Of a stretch of DNA of 64,000 nucleotides, positions 3,715 through 62,700 are shown one piece after another. Numbering within the stretch: the stretch's first letter is position 1; the number at the start of each line of letters is the position of its first letter. Made by a program: the position numbers and the translations under genes. Source of the DNA: Escherichia coli. Lineage in GTDB: Bacteria; Pseudomonadota; Gammaproteobacteria; Enterobacterales; Enterobacteriaceae. Location: NCBI RefSeq assembly GCF_003790525.1, contig NZ_CP033635.1. One strand, 5' to 3'. Under the pieces are notes generated by a model, which did no database searches, was not told where the DNA came from, and saw nothing but the letters and a program-made list of their open reading frames with translations.

Positions 3715-5028
3715 TTATTGATCCGCAGTTTTATCAAATTTGCCCAGCACTTCGCGCTCATAAGCCAGCGCTTTCTTACGGTCAAATTTGTGTTCCCACT
3801 TGGCAATCACCAGCACCGCCAGCGCATTACCCACCACGTTCAGCGCAGTACGCGCCATATCGAGGATACGGTCAACACCGGCAATAAATGCCAGACCTTC
3901 CAGCGGAATACCTACGCTACCCAGCGTTGCCAGCAGCACCACAAACGACACGCCCGGCACGCCAGCAATCCCTTTCGAGGTCACCATCAGCGTCAGCACC
4001 AGAATGATTTCCTGCCAGATGGACAGGTCAATGCCATACAACTGCGCGATGAAAATAGCGGCAATACTTTGATACAGCGTCGAACCATCAAGGTTAAAAG
4101 AGTAACCGGTCGGCACCACGAAACTGGTGATCGACGCCGGTGCACCGTAGGCTTCCATCTTCTCAATAATTCGCGGCAGCACGCTTTCAGAACTGGCAGT
4201 GGAGTACGCCAGAATCAGCTCATCTTTCAGAATACGAATCAGGATCCAGACGCTTAACCCGCACAGGCGCGCCACAATTCCCAGCACTACCAGCGCGAAG
4301 AACAGAATGGCGAAATGCACCAGCAGCACCAGTTTCGCCAGTGGCCACAGAGAAGAGAAACCAAAGTTAGCCACCGTCACCGCAATCAGCGCAAACACAC
4401 CCACCGGTGCATAACGCATCACCATGTGAGTCACTTTAAACATGGTTTCAGAGATGGAGCGGAACACGGTCACCAGCGGTTCACGATGCGTCGCGGGCAG
4501 GGATGAAAGCCCCAGACCAAACAGCACCGAGAAGAAGATGATCGGCAGCATTTCGCCTTTCGCCATCGACGCCACAATGTTCGTCGGCACCAGCGACAAA
4601 ATCGTGCCCATAATGCCGTGGGAACTGCTTTGTACCGCTTCCGTAGTGCTCTGATATTTCGAGATATCGACGGTCGCCAGCTGCGACATATCCACCCCGG
4701 CACCGGGCTGGAAGACGTTCGCCAGAGTAATCCCCAAAATGATGGCGACGGTGGTGATCACCTCGAAGTAAATAATGGTTTTCGCGCCAATACGCCCGAG
4801 CTGTTTGGCATCACCAACACCCGCGATACCCACCACCAGCGTGGAGATCACAATCGGCACAACAATCATTTTGATCAGATGGATGAAGATATCACCCGCC
4901 GGAGAGAGCAAATTGACGACCAGCCAGTCGCGACTGTCGCTATGGTAGTGCAGGTAGCTTCCCAGGAGAATGCCCAGCACCATAGCAAACAGAATCTGCC
5001 AGGCCAGGCTGAATTTTATATTTTTCAT
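3715..5028 (-). CDS. gltP: Glutamate/aspartate:proton symporter (DAACS family)
   Basis: 437 aa polytopic membrane protein matching GltP; hairpin terminator at about 3685..3705. Confidence 0.92.
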   Translation of the reverse strand: MKNIKFSLAWQILFAMVLGILLGSYLHYHSDSRDWLVVNLLSPAGDIFIHLIKMIVVPIVISTLVVGIAGVGDAKQLGRIGAKTIIYFEVITTVAIILGITLANVFQPGAGVDMSQLATVDISKYQSTTEAVQSSSHGIMGTILSLVPTNIVASMAKGEMLPIIFFSVLFGLGLSSLPATHREPLVTVFRSISETMFKVTHMVMRYAPVGVFALIAVTVANFGFSSLWPLAKLVLLVHFAILFFALVVLGIVARLCGLSVWILIRILKDELILAYSTASSESVLPRIIEKMEAYGAPASITSFVVPTGYSFNLDGSTLYQSIAAIFIAQLYGIDLSIWQEIILVLTLMVTSKGIAGVPGVSFVVLLATLGSVGIPLEGLAFIAGVDRILDMARTALNVVGNALAVLVIAKWEHKFDRKKALAYEREVLGKFDKTADQ

Positions 5029-55390: not shown

Positions 55391-55460
55391 AGATGTTGTT
55401 CTGCCAATGTTATGCCGCTGCACCCTCAACTTACGTTATCCCAACTTGTGACTGTTATTC

Positions 55461-55485
55461 GGCGCTCCACGGAGCGCCTTTTTTT
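55461..55485. terminator. Terminator hairpin between malG and psiE
   Basis: GGCGCTCCacggAGCGCC followed by T7. Confidence 0.75.
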
Positions 55486-56108: not shown

Positions 56109-56387
56109 ATGAAACGTAACCTGATAAAGGTGGTAAAAATGAAGCCTTATTTTGCTGCTTTGATGTTATCAGTCTCTGTTCTTCCTGCTTATGCCGGTCC
56201 GCTCGGTACTGCTGATAAAGCCGACCTACCGCAAAGCAATGTCTCCAGCCCAATGATGGCCCAGTCGCTCAGGCAACCAGACCTGCAACCAATATCGACG
56301 GACAGGAAGACAGAATGTTTTCGCCTTTACACACCAGATCGCAAACCGGGGGTGAACTGCGTTCCTGATGGCTCGACAGGCCATTAA
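56109..56387 (+). CDS. yjbT: Small secreted protein YjbT
   Basis: 92 aa ORF with signal peptide (second Met at 56139 is an alternative start); two Cys. Confidence 0.6.
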   Translation: MKRNLIKVVKMKPYFAALMLSVSVLPAYAGPLGTADKADLPQSNVSSPMMAQSLRQPDLQPISTDRKTECFRLYTPDRKPGVNCVPDGSTGH

Positions 56388-56433
56388 GAATAAAGGTGCC
56401 AGTGAGTGCGAAAACTGGCACCTTTCCCATGAC

Positions 56434-58530
56434 TTAGCGGAAATTGACGCTACGGTCGCTGGTCATGTCATACAACTGGAACTTACGCCCAAGTTGCTGA
56501 CCACCGTCACGCGTCAGCGGCGTCCAGCCAATTGCCGCACGACTGCGTGTTGGGCCAGACGAGAAGAGATCCAGCGGTACAGAGACATATACGCCTTTGG
56601 TGAAGTCCCCTTCGCCGTACTCCTCTTTCGAAACATTGGTGATCGTGGCATAGCCACCCACCACCACGCCGCTATCAAAGCGTTTGGCGATCTCCAGCGT
56701 GCCGCCTTTATCCCCTGCCAGATACTGCCCGATGCTGGCTTTCACTAACACATCCTGAGCGAAAGATGGCGTCCAGTAGGCGGTCAGATGTCCGGTTTTC
56801 ACGCTGTAATCGGTGAATTTCATCATATCTTTTGCGCTACGCCAGTCGCGCTGTTTAACGTAGTTGGCATCCAGACCAAACGCCCAGTTGCTGTCCAGCG
56901 GGCGATACAACACTTCAGCCCCCACGCCGCCAAACATGGTTTCGAGATAACCTCCGTAGACCTGACCGTAGAAGCCGTTGCCCAGATGCTGGAAGTAGTT
57001 GGCTTGCAGGTTATTCACATAGACATCATTCTGCACATACTCGCGCACATGGGTACGAACGCGCGGTAAGTGCGAGTCCTGCGGTGGATTGGTGTAGTTA
57101 AACTTGTCGTAGTTGTTGGCAAGGTTAGCAAACAGGCTGCCGGTGGTGAGCAGATGCTCCGTCAGCCACAAATCCGCCGTTCCCATCACGCCCAGCTGAT
57201 ACATGTAAAAGTTTTCCGGGCCACCGACCGACTGGTTCAGCACCGGATCGATATGGAAATCAAAGCGTGATTTGTCAATATACCAGCCCTGCTCGGTGGA
57301 CTTCGGAACCACTGGCTCGACGCGTTTTTGCGCCAGCTTCGTTTCGTGGCCCAACGGCTCTCCGGCGAGATGATTTTTCAGGCTGGCGACATCGGTTTCC
57401 GTCGTCACCTGCGGCATGTTAAGGCGATTTTCCGTAATGCGGATCGTTTTGATCCCATCCGGCAGATCGTTCATCACGATCCGATTAGCACGGATGATCC
57501 CTTCGCGCGAATCACGATATTTCACCTGCTCGCCGGTAACATACAGCGTATCGCCTTTCGCCTGGATCTGCGGATCGGCCAGTCCGGCGTTGTATTTCAA
57601 CAGCGTTAACTGATTCGCCACCACCGAATGCTGCAAAATGGCATCCTGTGGCTGCGGTTGATATTGCGGGCGGGCGTTATCGTTATACGAAGGACGCAGA
57701 TCGTTAAAGTTGGTGCGCAGCGTGACGCCAAACATAAAGGTGTTGCCACGTTCATAGCTAAGGTTAACGTCGGCCCAATCGGTAACGCGATAAATCGCCC
57801 CGACGTTAAACTTACTTTTTTGCTCCAGCTTCCCGGCAAAATCCTGCTGATAATTATTGCCTTCATACTCCAGTTTCAGGCGCAGCGGTTGCCAGGGCGT
57901 CTGGTATTCCACGCCGCCAAACAGTGAGGCCGGGCCGTGGAACATCTGGCTACCGTCGATAGATCCCGCCTGTTTATAGCTGTTATCGCGATAGCAATAT
58001 TTATCACTGGCTGAACAGAGCGGATTTTTCACATTACCGCTGGTGCCCAGATATCCCCAGCCCAGGCCGAGCGTAAAATCGAACGGCCCCCAGGCTTTGC
58101 TGGCGACAAGATATTCCGCATCAAACAGCCCCGTACCGCCGATATCCCGCGCACCAACCGCCACTTGCGGCAGCCAATAACTCTCTTCCCACAAACGCAG
58201 TTTGAGATCGAAGGCTTTATCTTTATACGTTTGATCACCAGAGAACGCTTCGACGCTGCTGTACTGCCGGGTGCGCACGTCGGTGTAGCGCAGCGTTGTT
58301 TCCAGCCACGGGAAGAGTTGCACTGAAGCTGAGTAATAACGGTACTGATCGTTATCGCGATAGTTCAGGCTCAACTCCCCTTCCCGCGCCATGCGCGCGG
58401 TGGGCGTTTGTAATAATCCTACGCCACCGAAATCCGACTGCGACGGACCAATGGGCGCAGGATATGTTTCGCCGTAGCAAGCTGTGCTAATGCCCAGCGC
58501 CAGTAAGCTAAGCAGATGTCTTTTTTTCAT
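56434..58530 (-). CDS. yjbH: Outer-membrane beta-barrel lipoprotein-like protein (exopolysaccharide locus)
   Basis: 698 aa, signal peptide with lipobox-like LGISTAC, C-terminal aromatic residue. Confidence 0.85.
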
Positions 58531-59267
58531 TATTGAGGTATCCGCTGCGTCAGAGTCTGAAGAATGTCGGCGTTAAGGGCATCAGACGTCTCACTCCAGA
58601 CGGAGTCCGCGAGGCCAACATAAATAATGCTGCCGGGCATCGGCTCTACGTGACGCTTGTTCCAGTAAGCCACCGGCGCTTTTTGCGTGCGTCCGTCCGG
58701 GTAAACCACCCACGCGTAGCTGCGATCCGCACCGCTAAGCAGGTTCTGCCCGGAGAGATAGCTCGCCACGTCGCGACCTGGAGTGAATGGCTGCTTGCCA
58801 GGACGGCTTATAAGCCCGAATAACGTGACCGTGGACGGCGGTGGTCCGACCCACAGCGTGTAGTTGCCCTGCAACGGCGGGTTACCGCGTTCGGCAACGC
58901 GGACGATATCAGGATCAAGATTGATTTTTTGCCTGCCCGTCACTTTCAACGCCTGAATTTGCTGGCGTAAGGCGTTAATTGCGGCGGCATCGTCGGCGCT
59001 GGAATCTGCAGCCAGTTCTGCCAGCCGTGTCAGCAACGCCTGCTGCTGACGCAATGCTGCCGCCGTGGCCAGCTCTTCGCTAATCACCGCACCAGGCCAC
59101 CAGCTGTTTGCCAGCTGCGGTTGGCCTACCAGATCGATTAAATGCTCTGCGCCCGTCAGCGTTTTAGCCTCACTGCTGCCATTGCTGAACACCTTGACGG
59201 TTCCCGCCGCGAAGACTGATGACGCCCCCGCACTCAAAAGCAACGCGACAATAGTTTGTTTAATCAT
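58530..59267 (-). CDS. yjbG: Periplasmic protein YjbG
   Basis: 245 aa with signal peptide; 1-bp stop/start overlap with yjbH. Confidence 0.85.
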
Positions 59268-59932
59268 TGTTTTGCCGCCTTGATGAGGGTGGTTTTCACC
59301 GGGAAATAATCCGCGCCGAGATACTGTTCCGACTGGCGAATTTGCCCTTCGCTGTCGATCCAGTAGCGGTTATGCCAGCGCGCCTGGTCGGTGGAGACTT
59401 CTTCGTCCAGCATGCGAACCGGGGTTTCATCGCTGCCGACCTTGACGGTATCGGTGCCATCCCATTTGAAGACTGAGCGTGCGGTGGCGTAGCGTACCTG
59501 CTGGTACTCGGTCCAGCCCATCGTGCGCGTCCAGGTTGCACCATCAACAATTTGTGCGGGTTTAATCAGCGGGTCGGCAGCAAGGTTATTCACTTCAATC
59601 AGGTTGTCGCCGCCAAGCAAAGTCTTCACCAGACGACCATGTTGTGTGACAAGGGTGGCCTGATCCTGAGTGACCCATTTTTGTTGTCCGTCTTCAGCGA
59701 AGGCCAGCACCACAAATAACTGCGGCCCGCCATTAAGCTGCATGTACTGGCTGGCGTAGGGCATATTTTGAATATCATCGTCCGTCAGTTGTACGCCTGG
59801 CGTACCGAACAGACTGTCCCACAGTGAATTGCCCAGCTCTTTAGTCGTGGCTGAACAGGCCTGTAATAGCAGGCAGATAAGAATGAGTGCAGGTCGCTTC
59901 ACGACTCTTCTCCAGAGGGGCAGAATAACCAC
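59264..59932 (-). CDS. yjbF: Lipoprotein YjbF
   Basis: Lipobox LLQAC; overlaps yjbG by 4 bp; N-terminal start uncertain. Confidence 0.82.
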   Translation of the reverse strand: MVILPLWRRVVKRPALILICLLLQACSATTKELGNSLWDSLFGTPGVQLTDDDIQNMPYASQYMQLNGGPQLFVVLAFAEDGQQKWVTQDQATLVTQHGRLVKTLLGGDNLIEVNNLAADPLIKPAQIVDGATWTRTMGWTEYQQVRYATARSVFKWDGTDTVKVGSDETPVRMLDEEVSTDQARWHNRYWIDSEGQIRQSEQYLGADYFPVKTTLIKAAKQ

Positions 59933-60015
59933 ACCGGAGTGTGGTTATGGTAAATCCCTTCATACTTCAAGCCACAGATGCGATGACTCGAATTATTTTG
60001 GGGATACATACTTTA

Positions 60016-60258
60016 TTACTGGGTACTGGTGGTCGTGGTTGTGGTGGTCCCGGTATTAGAACCATCACCGCCACCGGTTGCCGCGAGCGCGACACCCACC
60101 GCCGAGCTTACGGTGCTGACGCTGGTCGCGGAGGAACTCCCCGCCGAAACCGACGTTGCTGCCGACCCTGCCGCTTCGCCCACCTGTACAGGTGCAGCCC
60201 ACGCAGAAGTCGCCGCAAGCGCAGATATGGCAAAAATGCCATACAGAACTTTTTTCAT
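60016..60258 (-). CDS. yjbE: Secreted low-complexity Ala/Ser/Thr/Gly-rich protein YjbE
   Basis: 80 aa, signal peptide then [15 protein letters not shown]...[10 protein letters not shown]; first gene of yjbEFGH. Confidence 0.8.
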
Positions 60259-60568
60259 AACAATTTCCCTTCATTGAATGAATGGAGATTTACCCAAAAA
60301 CATTTCGGGCGGGATCGAGTATACACAACTAAAGCATGCGAATTACGGCGCGGGTAATTAGTGATGGGGTTTTAGGATAATTGGAATGAATATCAAATAT
60401 AAGCTTCAGATTATATATAAATAACACTAAAAATCATAAGCTTAAAATAAAAATAAAAGTAATTAATCTGCGTATTTTCCGAAATCAATCACGATTAAAA
60501 ATCTATTTTAGGATTAACCTCACGGTATGATTTCCGTTAAATCACAGACAAGGGGATTTATCTGATAA

Positions 60569-60600
60569 AAAATGCCGACATAACGTCGGCATTTTTATTA
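60569..60600. terminator. Bidirectional terminator downstream of pgi
   Basis: AAAAAATGCCGACataaCGTCGGCATTTTTATT. Confidence 0.8.
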
Positions 60601-60611
60601 GGGTTATTTAA

Positions 60612-62261
60612 TTAACCGCGCCACGCTTTATAGCGGTTAATCAGACCATTGGTCGAGCTATCGTGGCTGCTGATTTCTTTGTCATCTTTCAGCTCTGGCA
60701 GAATACGGTTCGCCAGTTGTTTACCCAGCTCCACGCCCCACTGGTCGAAGGTGAAGATGTTCAGGATCACGCCCTGAGTAAAGATTTTGTGCTCATACAG
60801 CGCAATCAACGCACCCAGGCTGAACGGAGTGATTTCACGCAGCAGGATGGAGTTGGTCGGGCGGTTACCTTCGAACACTTTGAACGGCACCACGTAGTCA
60901 AGCGTTGCCGGATCTTTACCCTGATCGCGATATTCCTGCTCAACCACTTCGCGGGATTTACCAAACGCCAGCGCTTCGGTCTGAGCGAAGAAGTTAGACA
61001 GCAGTTTCTGGTGATGATCAGAGAGCGGGTTATGGGTGATAGCCGGAGCGATGAAATCGCACGGTACCATTTTGGTTCCCTGGTGGATCAGCTGGTAGAA
61101 CGCGTGCTGACCGTTAGTACCTGGTTCACCCCAGATAATCGGGCCAGTCTGGTAATCCACAACGTTACCGTTACGGTCAACATACTTACCGTTGGACTCC
61201 ATATTGCCCTGCTGGAAGTACGCCGCGAAACGGTGCATATACTGGTCATACGGCAGAATCGCTTCAGTTTCCGCACCAAAGAAATTGTTGTACCAGATGC
61301 CAATCAGCGCCAGCAAGACAGGCAGGTTTTTCTCGGCAGGCGTGGTGGAGAAATGCTTGTCCATCGCGTGTGCGCCAGAAAGCAGTTCAACGAAGTTATC
61401 AAAGCCGATGGAGAGAACAATCGACAGGCCAATCGCTGACCACAAAGAGTAACGACCGCCGACCCAGTCCCAGAATTCGAACATGTTGGCAGTATCAATA
61501 CCAAACTCGCCAACGGCTTTGGCATTGGTGGAAAGCGCCGCAAAGTGTTTCGCAACGTGTTTCTCATCACCTGCCGCTTTCAGGAACCAGTCACGCGCGC
61601 TATGGGCGTTGGTCATGGTTTCCTGAGTGGTGAAGGTTTTAGATGCTACCAGGAACAGCGTGGTTTCCGGGTTTACTTTTTTCAGCACTTCCGCGATGTG
61701 AGTCCCATCGACGTTAGAAACAAAGTGCATGTTCAGGTGGTTTTTGTACGGACGCAGTGCTTCGGTCACCATGTACGGGCCGAGGTCAGAACCACCGATC
61801 CCGATGTTCACTACGTCAGTGATTGCTTTGCCGGTATAGCCTTTCCACTCACCGGAAATAATCGCTTCCGAGAAGGTTTTCATCTTCTCCAGCACCGCGT
61901 TGACTTCCGGCATAACATCTTTGCCATCAACCAGAATCGGGGTATTGCTACGGTTACGCAGCGCTACGTGCAGTACGGCGCGGTTTTCAGTGCGGTTGAT
62001 CTTCTCGCCAGAGAACATCGACTTAATCGCGCCCGCCAGATCGCACTCTTTCGCCAGATCTTGTAATTTCGCCAGCGTCTCTTCAGTGATGCGGTTTTTG
62101 GAGTAATCCACCAGCATCTGATCGTCGAAGGTTACGGAGAACTTAGAAAAACGATCGCCGTCTTTAGCAAAAAGATCGGCGATCGTAACGTCTTTCATTT
62201 CATCGAAGTGTTTCTGTAGTGCCTGCCAGGCAGCGGTCTGCGTTGGATTGATGTTTTTCAT
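60612..62261 (-). CDS. pgi: Glucose-6-phosphate isomerase
   Basis: 549 aa from [15 protein letters not shown]; PGI family signatures. Confidence 0.96.
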
Positions 62262-62504
62262 TAGCAATACTCTTCTGATTTTGAGAATTGTGACTTTGGA
62301 AGATTGTAGCGCCAGTCACAGAAAAATGTGATGGTTTTAGTGCCGTTAGCGTAATGTTGAGTGTAAACCCTTAGCGCAGTGAAGCATTTATTAGCTGAAC
62401 TACTGACCGCCAGGAGTGGATGAAAAATCCGCATGACCCCATCGTTGACAACCGCCCCGCTCACCCTTTATTTATAAATGTACTACCTGCGCTAGCGCAG
62501 GCCA

Positions 62505-62700
62505 GAAGAGGCGCGTTGCCCAAGTAACGGTGTTGGAGGAGCCAGTCCTGTGATAACACCTGAGGGGGTGCATCGCCGAGGTGATTGAACGGCTGGCCAC
62601 GTTCATCATCGGCTACAGGGGCTGAATCCCCTGGGTTGTCACCAGAAGCGTTCGCAGTCGGGCGTTTCGCAAGTGGTGGAGCACTTCTGGGTGAAAATAG
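62505..62700 (+). ncRNA. Lysine riboswitch (L-box) in the lysC leader
   Basis: Long structured 5' leader (about 320 nt) upstream of lysC containing AGAGGCGC...TTGCC...GGAGGAGCCAG L-box-like core; aptamer boundaries approximate. Confidence 0.65.

Follow-up and report, generated by a model that had tools for sequence, protein, structure and literature searches.

The stretch of DNA examined here, a 64,000-nucleotide portion of an Escherichia coli genome (contig NZ_CP033635.1 of assembly GCF_003790525.1; hereafter the window), carries the four genes yjbE, yjbF, yjbG and yjbH on its minus strand. This region is the known, annotated and stress-induced yjbEFGH operon of the core genome. We assign a probability of about 0.6 to the proposal that its products form an accessory outer-membrane machine that exports or anchors a lipid-(pyro)phosphate-linked glycan, with YjbE made in excess as a partner, carrier or substrate. 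It is established, or at least strongly supported, that the four genes are transcribed from the region between pgi and yjbE, that they are induced through the Rcs envelope-stress phosphorelay with RcsA (a point taken from the literature), and that their transcription ends at a bidirectional terminator after yjbH. The operon finding itself adds nothing beyond existing annotation, and our additions are incremental: an invariant hairpin after yjbE, the invariance of YjbE, Rcs-type boxes lying within a small RNA (sRNA) family, the finding of yjbT in Escherichia only, and fusions of YjbH homologues to a PAP2 domain.

Gene order and transcription of yjbEFGH

The 5.3 kb around yjbEFGH are 100% identical to Escherichia coli SMS-3-5 (NC_010498.1). 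Matches at 95% identity or more were found in 5425 of 5426 complete E. coli genomes, 5413 of which cover at least 80% of the 5.3 kb. A program-made list of open reading frames and the RefSeq annotation of NC_010498.1 agree on the gene coordinates, which place yjbE at 60016-60258 (80 aa; Pfam PF11106, E 5e-33), yjbF at 59264-59902 (212 aa, GTG start; PF11102, E 1.3e-63), yjbG at 58530-59267 (245 aa; PF20616 and PF06251, E 1e-49 and 2.1e-42) and yjbH at 56434-58530 (698 aa; PF06082, E 1.9e-270), all on the minus strand. In the program-made list, the frame of yjbF reaches 59932, compared with 59902 from the GTG start. The Pfam scores of all four proteins are far above the curated cut-offs, while no model of NCBIfam release 20 matched YjbE, YjbF, YjbG, YjbH or YjbT, though RefSeq names all of them. 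The genes yjbF and yjbG overlap by 4 bp (ATGA) and yjbG and yjbH by 1 bp (TAATG), an arrangement that an earlier note, made from the sequence alone, had described correctly. The same locus is known from K-12 (Ferrieres et al. 2007, Microbiology 153:1070); the two are 97.6% identical at the nucleotide level (strain MG1655) and agree in genes, overlaps and the flanking pgi and psiE. Compared with K-12, SMS-3-5 lacks xylE beyond psiE, as well as a repetitive extragenic palindrome (REP)/bacterial interspersed mosaic element (BIME) block of ~145 bp between the pgi stop codon and its terminator; the organisation is otherwise the same. Such a block, of ~145-157 bp, is present in K-12 and in E. whittamii (positions 1909-2055 of locus L067) and absent in SMS-3-5 (60611/60612).

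The synteny pgi-yjbEFGH-psiE is kept across a set of 64 orthologous loci, for which one genome per species was scanned in genera including Escherichia, Citrobacter, Salmonella, Enterobacter, Lelliottia, Kluyvera, Trabulsiella, Buttiauxella, Cedecea, Atlantibacter and Mangrovibacter. The order and overlaps of the yjb genes are conserved across at least 15 genera. The ATGA overlap between yjbF and yjbG is kept in 55 of 63 loci, the 1-bp overlap between yjbG and yjbH (TAATG or TGATG) in 57 of 63, and most of the loci that lack one of these standard overlaps have a 1- or 4-bp overlap instead. Conservation of this kind argues strongly that the translation of yjbF, yjbG and yjbH is coupled. At the protein level, identity across the loci is highest for YjbH (77-99%) and lowest for YjbG (51-95%). 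In two Citrobacter loci, L006 from Citrobacter koseri NCTC10786 and L011 from C. amalonaticus, the YjbH alignment stops near residue 531-538, and in L011 the matches to yjbE, yjbF and pgi are broken too. These breaks may be frameshifts, pseudogenes or assembly errors.

The operon was established by reverse transcription PCR (RT-PCR; Ferrieres 2007, as reported in citing papers). The same work, as cited in PMC5461412, PMC5651002, PMC8592465 and PMC11494523, describes yjbEFGH as an RcsA/RcsB-dependent operon affecting an exopolysaccharide (EPS) distinct from colanic acid, and the Rcs control suggested in the earlier note agrees with this literature. Colicin M induces the four genes together (log2 5.74, 5.67, 4.29 and 5.23 for yjbE, yjbF, yjbG and yjbH), and so does a LolCDE inhibitor. 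Mucoidy of loss-of-function mutants has also been published. One could still suppose that the four genes are unrelated and separately transcribed neighbours, as the 113-nt yjbE-yjbF spacer with its strong secondary structure might suggest. Against the conservation of order and overlaps described above, the same layout in gfcABCD, the co-induction of all four genes and the RT-PCR reported by citing papers, this supposition, which the earlier note had named as its own refuting condition, is itself refuted and has a negligible chance of being right.

At the distal end of the operon, a bidirectional terminator hairpin (56392-56425, both strands) lies between the stop codons of yjbH and yjbT. Its 12-bp stem is set between an A-run and a U-run and folds at -22.7 and -22.5 kcal/mol (z = -4.0 and -4.5). 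The gene yjbT (56109-56387, plus strand; Pfam PF17089), which encodes a small secreted protein of 92 aa, had been called divergent; it is in fact convergent, tail-to-tail with yjbH, and shares this terminator. Among the 64 loci, yjbT was found in Escherichia only (E. coli and E. whittamii); it is a lineage-specific neighbour and not a part of the yjb system. Outside Escherichia, psiE or other inserts come immediately after yjbH.

Folds, fusions and paralogues of the Yjb proteins

The immediate neighbours of yjbEFGH are pgi, yjbT and, beyond yjbT, psiE. In the RefSeq annotation of the neighbourhood there is no glycosyltransferase, flippase or polymerase gene near the operon, and no tyrosine kinase or phosphatase gene is adjacent to it. 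Since yjbEFGH comes without wza/wzb/wzc-type or biosynthetic genes, it is best described as an outer-membrane and periplasmic module, not as a biosynthetic pathway.

YjbF possesses a lipobox (LLQAC-S), is predicted to be a lipoprotein of the outer membrane and is a paralogue of GfcB (PDB 2IN5, YmcC/GfcB; E 8e-43), while YjbG is a periplasmic protein of the GfcC family (PDB 3P42, GfcC; E 3.9e-55). A YjbH profile detected no solved relative among the PDB sequences, and its matches to designed TIM barrels (E > 0.5) were discarded as spurious. An AlphaFold2 (AF2) model of YjbH was obtained with a predicted local distance difference test score (pLDDT) of 91.5 and a predicted template modelling score of 0.90. 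DSSP assigned 12 + 13 strands to this model and an alpha/beta domain at 301-388, so that in the model the periplasmic alpha/beta domain lies between a 12-strand KdgM/FapF-like barrel and a 13-strand one. The model reproduces the two-barrel outer-membrane fold published for the family (PMC8346858, PMC11494523) and bears out the barrel that the earlier note had proposed to look for. The cellular locations given in that note (a lipoprotein, a periplasmic protein and an outer-membrane protein of 698 aa) likewise agree with Pfam, the paralogue structures and the YjbH model, as does, together with the literature, its idea of a dedicated export or assembly pathway with a poorly defined polymer. A physical complex has been measured for GfcB/C/D only (PMC8592465), and in molecular dynamics lipid A may exit the 13-strand barrel via an open seam. 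YjbH is still labelled 'putative lipoprotein' in the K-12 RefSeq record; its paralogue GfcD was found experimentally not to be acylated (PMC8592465).

The YjbH family comprised 2,666 representatives at 50% clustering, and a size of 4,187 proteins has been published for the YjbH/GfcD family (PMC8346858). Sixteen long YjbH homologues (941-1422 aa) were scanned for added domains. A GfcC-like N-terminus, which corresponds to the known OtnG-type fusion, was present in 13/16 of them, and a C-terminal PAP2 lipid-phosphate-phosphatase domain in 12/16, with 11 above the Pfam cut-off. The proteins combining GfcC-like, YjbH and PAP2 parts (1150-1420 aa) are P0034, P0055, P0060, P0061, P0065, P0083, P0112, P0116, P0122, P0133 and P0141, along with P0071, a weak case. 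The main papers on the YjbH family do not mention the PAP2 domain. The genomic context of one PAP2-fusion homologue was limited to contigs of 5-8.5 kb and was uninformative. The fusion of a YjbG-type domain to YjbH supports a physical complex between YjbG and YjbH, and the conserved gene overlaps are further indirect support for a putative complex of YjbF, YjbG and YjbH at the outer membrane. The fusion of a PAP2 enzyme to YjbH favours a cargo with a lipid (pyro)phosphate.

YjbE consists of a Sec signal peptide (…SAWA-AP) followed by a mature Thr/Ser/Ala/Gly-rich peptide of 59 aa (T 22%, S 20%, A 19%, G 15%, V 12%), which confirms its earlier description as a secreted Ala/Ser/Thr/Gly-rich protein of 80 aa. 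Its length is 80-83 aa in 51 unique orthologues and its sequence is nearly invariant. Its C-terminal stretch, ending in (Q/R), shows essentially no variation, including in genera whose YjbG has no more than 51-60% identity, and an AVGVA…SGDG…NT.TTTSTT ending is common to YjbE and GfcA. Judged from these alignments, the constraint on YjbE is sequence-specific, which a disordered Ser/Thr-rich peptide does not usually show. Other authors have speculated about GfcA as a glycosylated cargo, or about secretion of an amyloid by the FapF-like barrel. The possibility that YjbE provides a 14th strand of the C-terminal barrel of YjbH (beta-augmentation) received no support from an AF2 model of a YjbH-(GGS)12-YjbE fusion, in which the YjbH part folded as in the single model. 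The input for this model was a paired alignment of 15 species with 42 unpaired homologues; it relies on a linker trick and shallow pairing, and comes with no predicted aligned error or coordinates.

The gfcABCD genes of K-12 encode the same four families in the same order, with the same 4-bp and 1-bp overlaps and a hairpin after the first gene. Identity is 64% for YjbH/GfcD, 42% for YjbG/GfcC, 39% for YjbF/GfcB and ~30% for YjbE/GfcA. GfcD is a two-barrel protein of 698 aa, the same length as YjbH, and the gfcA-gfcB spacer (106 nt) likewise holds a GC-rich hairpin followed by a U-run. However, gfc is followed by Wza-, Wzb- and Wzc-type genes (gfcE, etp and etk), none of which is found after yjbH, and YjbE (80 aa, versus 101 aa for GfcA) lacks the long hydrophobic Val/Ala/Gly stretch of GfcA. 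Moreover, gfc exports an O-antigen capsule (group 4), whereas yjbEFGH is Rcs-induced core genome and its polymer is undefined. The comparison with Wza/GfcC-type systems proposed in the earlier note therefore held on the GfcC side, with paralogues of GfcABCD at 30-64% identity, and failed on the Wza side: Pfam found no Poly_export, SLBB or Wza_C domain in the four Yjb proteins, domains by which a Wza-type system of outer-membrane polysaccharide export and polysaccharide co-polymerase proteins would be recognised.

Homologous modules (a small gene, a lipoprotein, a GfcC-like and a YjbH-like part) are also found in Vibrio orf1-wbfDCB and in Burkholderia OtnG, a GfcC-GfcD fusion, and a connection of these systems with capsule or EPS has been described (PMC8592465). 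E. coli has a separate gene for each part, in contrast to OtnG-type fusions, and YjbH is devoid of the PAP2 domain of many distant homologues. Identity to FapF, which serves functional-amyloid secretion, and to the 12-strand porins KdgM/NanC is only 12-14%; in YjbH, unlike in these proteins, the barrel forms one chain with a second barrel and a periplasmic domain. Fap-type amyloid secretion would call for repeat-containing amyloid subunit genes alongside a FapF-like barrel, and such genes are absent here. Compared with the Wza/OPX translocon of group 1 capsules and with the synthase-dependent porins PgaA, BcsC, AlgE and PelB, the Yjb system has no tetratricopeptide repeat scaffold, no adjacent synthase and no Wzx/Wzy/Wzc genes.

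Hairpins and candidate control sequences of the operon

A hairpin of the form (A)UAACCACAC-UNCG-GUGUGGUUA(U), with a U-rich tail, stands after yjbE (59925-59948, minus strand). Its stem of 9-10 bp is identical in 60/60 spacers, and the sole variable base of its loop is the N of UNCG, which may be U, C, A or G. The tail reads UUAUUUUG / UUUUG in most genera and UUAUUCUG / UUCUG in E. coli. The hairpin occurs in a single copy in the window and once per yjb locus, which rules out a dispersed repeat, and our literature search found no description of it. It is a candidate partial terminator or 3' stabiliser that would raise YjbE over YjbFGH. The published fold-changes were considered as a test of this polarity and set aside, as they are similar for yjbE and yjbF and silent on absolute stoichiometry.

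The whole E. coli yjbE-yjbF spacer folds at -36.8 kcal/mol (z = -4.1). Spacer length is bimodal across the loci, at ~63 nt in most genera (the ancestral state) and at 85-187 nt. In Escherichia, the upstream part of the spacer (59949-60015, minus strand) carries, within 59949-60010, a ~50-nt insertion that resembles an internally deleted enterobacterial repetitive intergenic consensus (ERIC) element, and a full-length ERIC-like element occupies the same site in the Citrobacter locus L007 (about 4150-4320). Some other Citrobacter and Enterobacter loci carry a REP-like palindrome downstream of the hairpin. The hairpin itself is never disrupted by these ERIC-like or REP-like insertions. Laboratory insertions of IS1 in this spacer have also been reported (PMC8117528).

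The 5' leader of yjbE (60266-60310, minus strand) contains two further hairpins, L1 (60292-60310) and L2 (60266-60286). In an RNAalifold analysis of 23 sequences, L1 was paired in 137/138 cells, with one compensatory pair and G-C/G-U changes, while L2 was invariant and pairs with the Shine-Dalgarno sequence GAAGGGA. The conservation of the leader hairpins and the pairing of L2 with the Shine-Dalgarno sequence suggest post-transcriptional control of yjbE.

The pgi-yjbE intergenic region (60259-60611, 353 bp) has a GC content of 31.7%, with 200-bp windows down to 27.5%, compared with ~52-58% in the flanking genes; the AT-richness remarked on earlier is thus confirmed. This region is composite and not purely promoter. 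The pgi intrinsic terminator (60567-60596, both strands; -16.6 kcal/mol, z = -5.2), which shows three compensatory base pairs across genera, accounts for the first ~45 bp. The earlier description of this region as a control region has to make room for the pgi terminator and for a match to the sRNA family STnc430.

A search for RcsAB boxes, which the earlier note had advised, gave a mixed outcome. The strict RcsAB 14-mer (TAAGAATATTCCTA, up to 3 mismatches) had 7 matches in the window, with none upstream of yjbE and no enrichment over shuffled sequences. A degenerate consensus and phylogenetic footprinting were therefore used instead, and they yielded three conserved matches. The published RcsB consensus is TN(G/A)GAN4TC(T/C)NA or TN(G/A)GAN4(A/C)CTNA (PMC7913699), and the box patterns expected upstream of an RcsAB-dependent promoter are TaAGaatatTCctA and the first of these two forms. 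Box A (TCAGATAAATCCCC; 60552-60565, minus strand) abuts the pgi terminator and has one mismatch to the first form. Box B (TGAGGTTAATCCTA; 60509-60522, minus strand) is an exact match to an RcsB box variant on the plus strand. Box C (TCGGAAAATACGCA; 60469-60482, minus strand) has one mismatch to the second form. As single sequences these matches are not above shuffles, and their support is the phylogenetic footprint in 51 loci. Box B was found in 51/51 loci, with T1, A3, G4, T10, C11 and A14 invariant and positions 5-9 and 12-13 variable; the box A pattern TnRGAnnnnTCY is kept in most loci, and the box C block TTTyRGAnnnnACGnA is kept in other genera. Box B is the best RcsAB-box candidate on this footprint. 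Closer to yjbE, the block TTGTGTATACTCGA (60315-60328, minus strand) is at least 90% conserved across the 51 loci and includes a -10-like TATACT at 60318-60323; it is a candidate proximal promoter element of yjbE. The H-NS control mentioned in the earlier note is an assumption drawn from the AT-richness, and our literature search found nothing for or against a link of H-NS to yjbE.

On the opposite strand, the same stretch gives a full-length match to STnc430 (Rfam RF02053; 60455-60603, plus strand), with 84.5 bits against a gathering threshold of 47. The match is antisense to the yjbE upstream region, overlaps boxes A-C and ends at the pgi terminator, which forms the 3' hairpin of the STnc430 model. 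The blocks at 60455-60603 might thus be conserved for an antisense sRNA and not as Rcs operators, an explanation that we consider possible but on balance rather unlikely. It is favoured by the scores above gathering in 8/10 other genera, by a promoter-like site on the plus strand (60421-60448, with a conserved TAAAAT) that would start the RNA at ~60455, and by the strong terminator at its 3' end. However, the helix that the model draws between boxes C and B is poorly kept: of its two variable pairs, one is standard in 7/51 loci and the other in 31/51, its 7-bp core is fully paired in only 3/51, and RNAalifold supports the terminator helix only. This helix was rejected on these counts as the cause of box B and C conservation, which argues that the blocks are conserved as sequence, as protein-binding half-sites would be. 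Indeed, invariant half-site bases around a free spacer are the pattern expected of a dimeric DNA-binding protein. No RNA is annotated at this place in the SMS-3-5 or K-12 RefSeq records, and the literature searched contained no discussion of this sRNA. The two explanations are compatible with each other.

Farther out, pgi (60612-62261, minus strand) lies upstream of yjbE on the same strand, and a lysine riboswitch (RF00168, 99.5 bits) is found at 62498-62694 (plus strand) upstream of lysC, as in RefSeq. On the other side, the gap between malG and psiE is 93 bp in SMS-3-5 (55391-55483), where K-12 has xylE and an annotated MalH sRNA region; xylE is also absent from this position in some other E. 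coli genomes.

A proposed export or anchoring machine and its alternatives

In the scheme of an accessory export or anchoring machine, Rcs would act on the operon through boxes A-C, and translation of yjbF, yjbG and yjbH is coupled through the conserved ATGA and TAATG overlaps. The periplasmic domain of YjbH would be the docking site for YjbF and YjbG, in line with the measurements on GfcB/C/D. The cargo of this complex would be a lipid-(pyro)phosphate-linked glycan whose enzymes are encoded elsewhere and which is carried across the outer membrane or into it, and the lipid might leave through the open seam of the 13-strand barrel as in the published model of GfcD. The conserved UNCG hairpin and its U-tract would attenuate read-through or stabilise the upstream RNA, producing an excess of YjbE that could serve as partner, carrier or substrate of the YjbFGH machine. 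A defective machine would perturb the envelope and turn on Rcs, and colanic acid would be over-produced (mucoidy).

Several observations weigh against this scheme. Export through YjbH is a proposal about an undefined polymer, and the lateral gate comes from a computational model of GfcD. The AF2 fusion leaves the YjbE segment as coil (pLDDT 22-37), with no sign of binding to YjbH. A consensus terminator scan makes no call at the yjbE hairpin, whose U-tract is weak in E. coli (UUAUUCUG), and a stem that never varies provides no covariation evidence. Since yjbF is induced as strongly as yjbE, any termination after yjbE can only be partial. As for the boxes, the conserved blocks lie within an sRNA family on the opposite strand, and if TATACT is the -10, boxes A-C sit at about -160 to -250, over 150 bp upstream of the transcription start.

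The part played by YjbE can also be turned around. In this case YjbE itself would be the cargo, an abundant, invariant, Thr-rich and possibly glycosylated peptide secreted by the FapF/KdgM-like N-terminal barrel to form or anchor a surface layer, and the reported EPS would be a YjbE-linked glycan or a secondary effect of Rcs. The published speculation on GfcA and on the FapF-like barrel goes in this direction, the absence of Fap amyloid subunit genes goes against the amyloid form of it, and we regard the idea as unlikely. Somewhat less likely again is a role of YjbFGH as a mainly structural or sensing component of the outer membrane, with an indirect link to polysaccharide and with both loss and over-production feeding back on Rcs. 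Such a role would fit the several independent studies in which mutations in yjbE, yjbG or yjbH, or IS1 in the yjbE-yjbF spacer, are tied to mucoidy or to colanic-acid-dependent sedimentation resistance. It would also fit the lack of biosynthetic genes in the operon and a core-genome position whose synteny is fixed across Enterobacteriaceae, in contrast to capsule loci, which are typically variable. On the other hand, gfcABCD, Vibrio wbfBCD and Aeromonas gfc are needed for specific capsules (PMC8592465), deletion of yjb in Salmonella abolishes the residual uronic-acid EPS of a wza mutant (PMC5461412), and the GfcC and PAP2 fusions point to substrate handling.

A more specific form of the export machine makes YjbE/GfcA a sequence-specific, Thr-rich, disordered carrier or partner peptide, supplied in excess via the UNCG attenuator, coupled to the lipid-phosphate-linked glycan and handed to YjbH. 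We consider this version doubtful and quite improbable as a whole. If it were true, it would constitute a peptide-assisted way to anchor polysaccharide at the surface, set apart from the Wza, synthase-dependent and Lpt routes, and the GfcC-YjbH-PAP2 fusions would be a single-polypeptide version that also removes the lipid phosphate.

YjbH/GfcD is the largest known family of multi-barrel outer-membrane proteins, and the yjb operon is among the strongest responders to envelope damage, whether by antibiotics, colicin M, LolCDE inhibition, phage or predation. While the accepted picture is unchanged so far, the hairpin after yjbE, the invariant YjbE, the Rcs-type boxes over an sRNA family and the PAP2 fusions offer experimental handles on this system.

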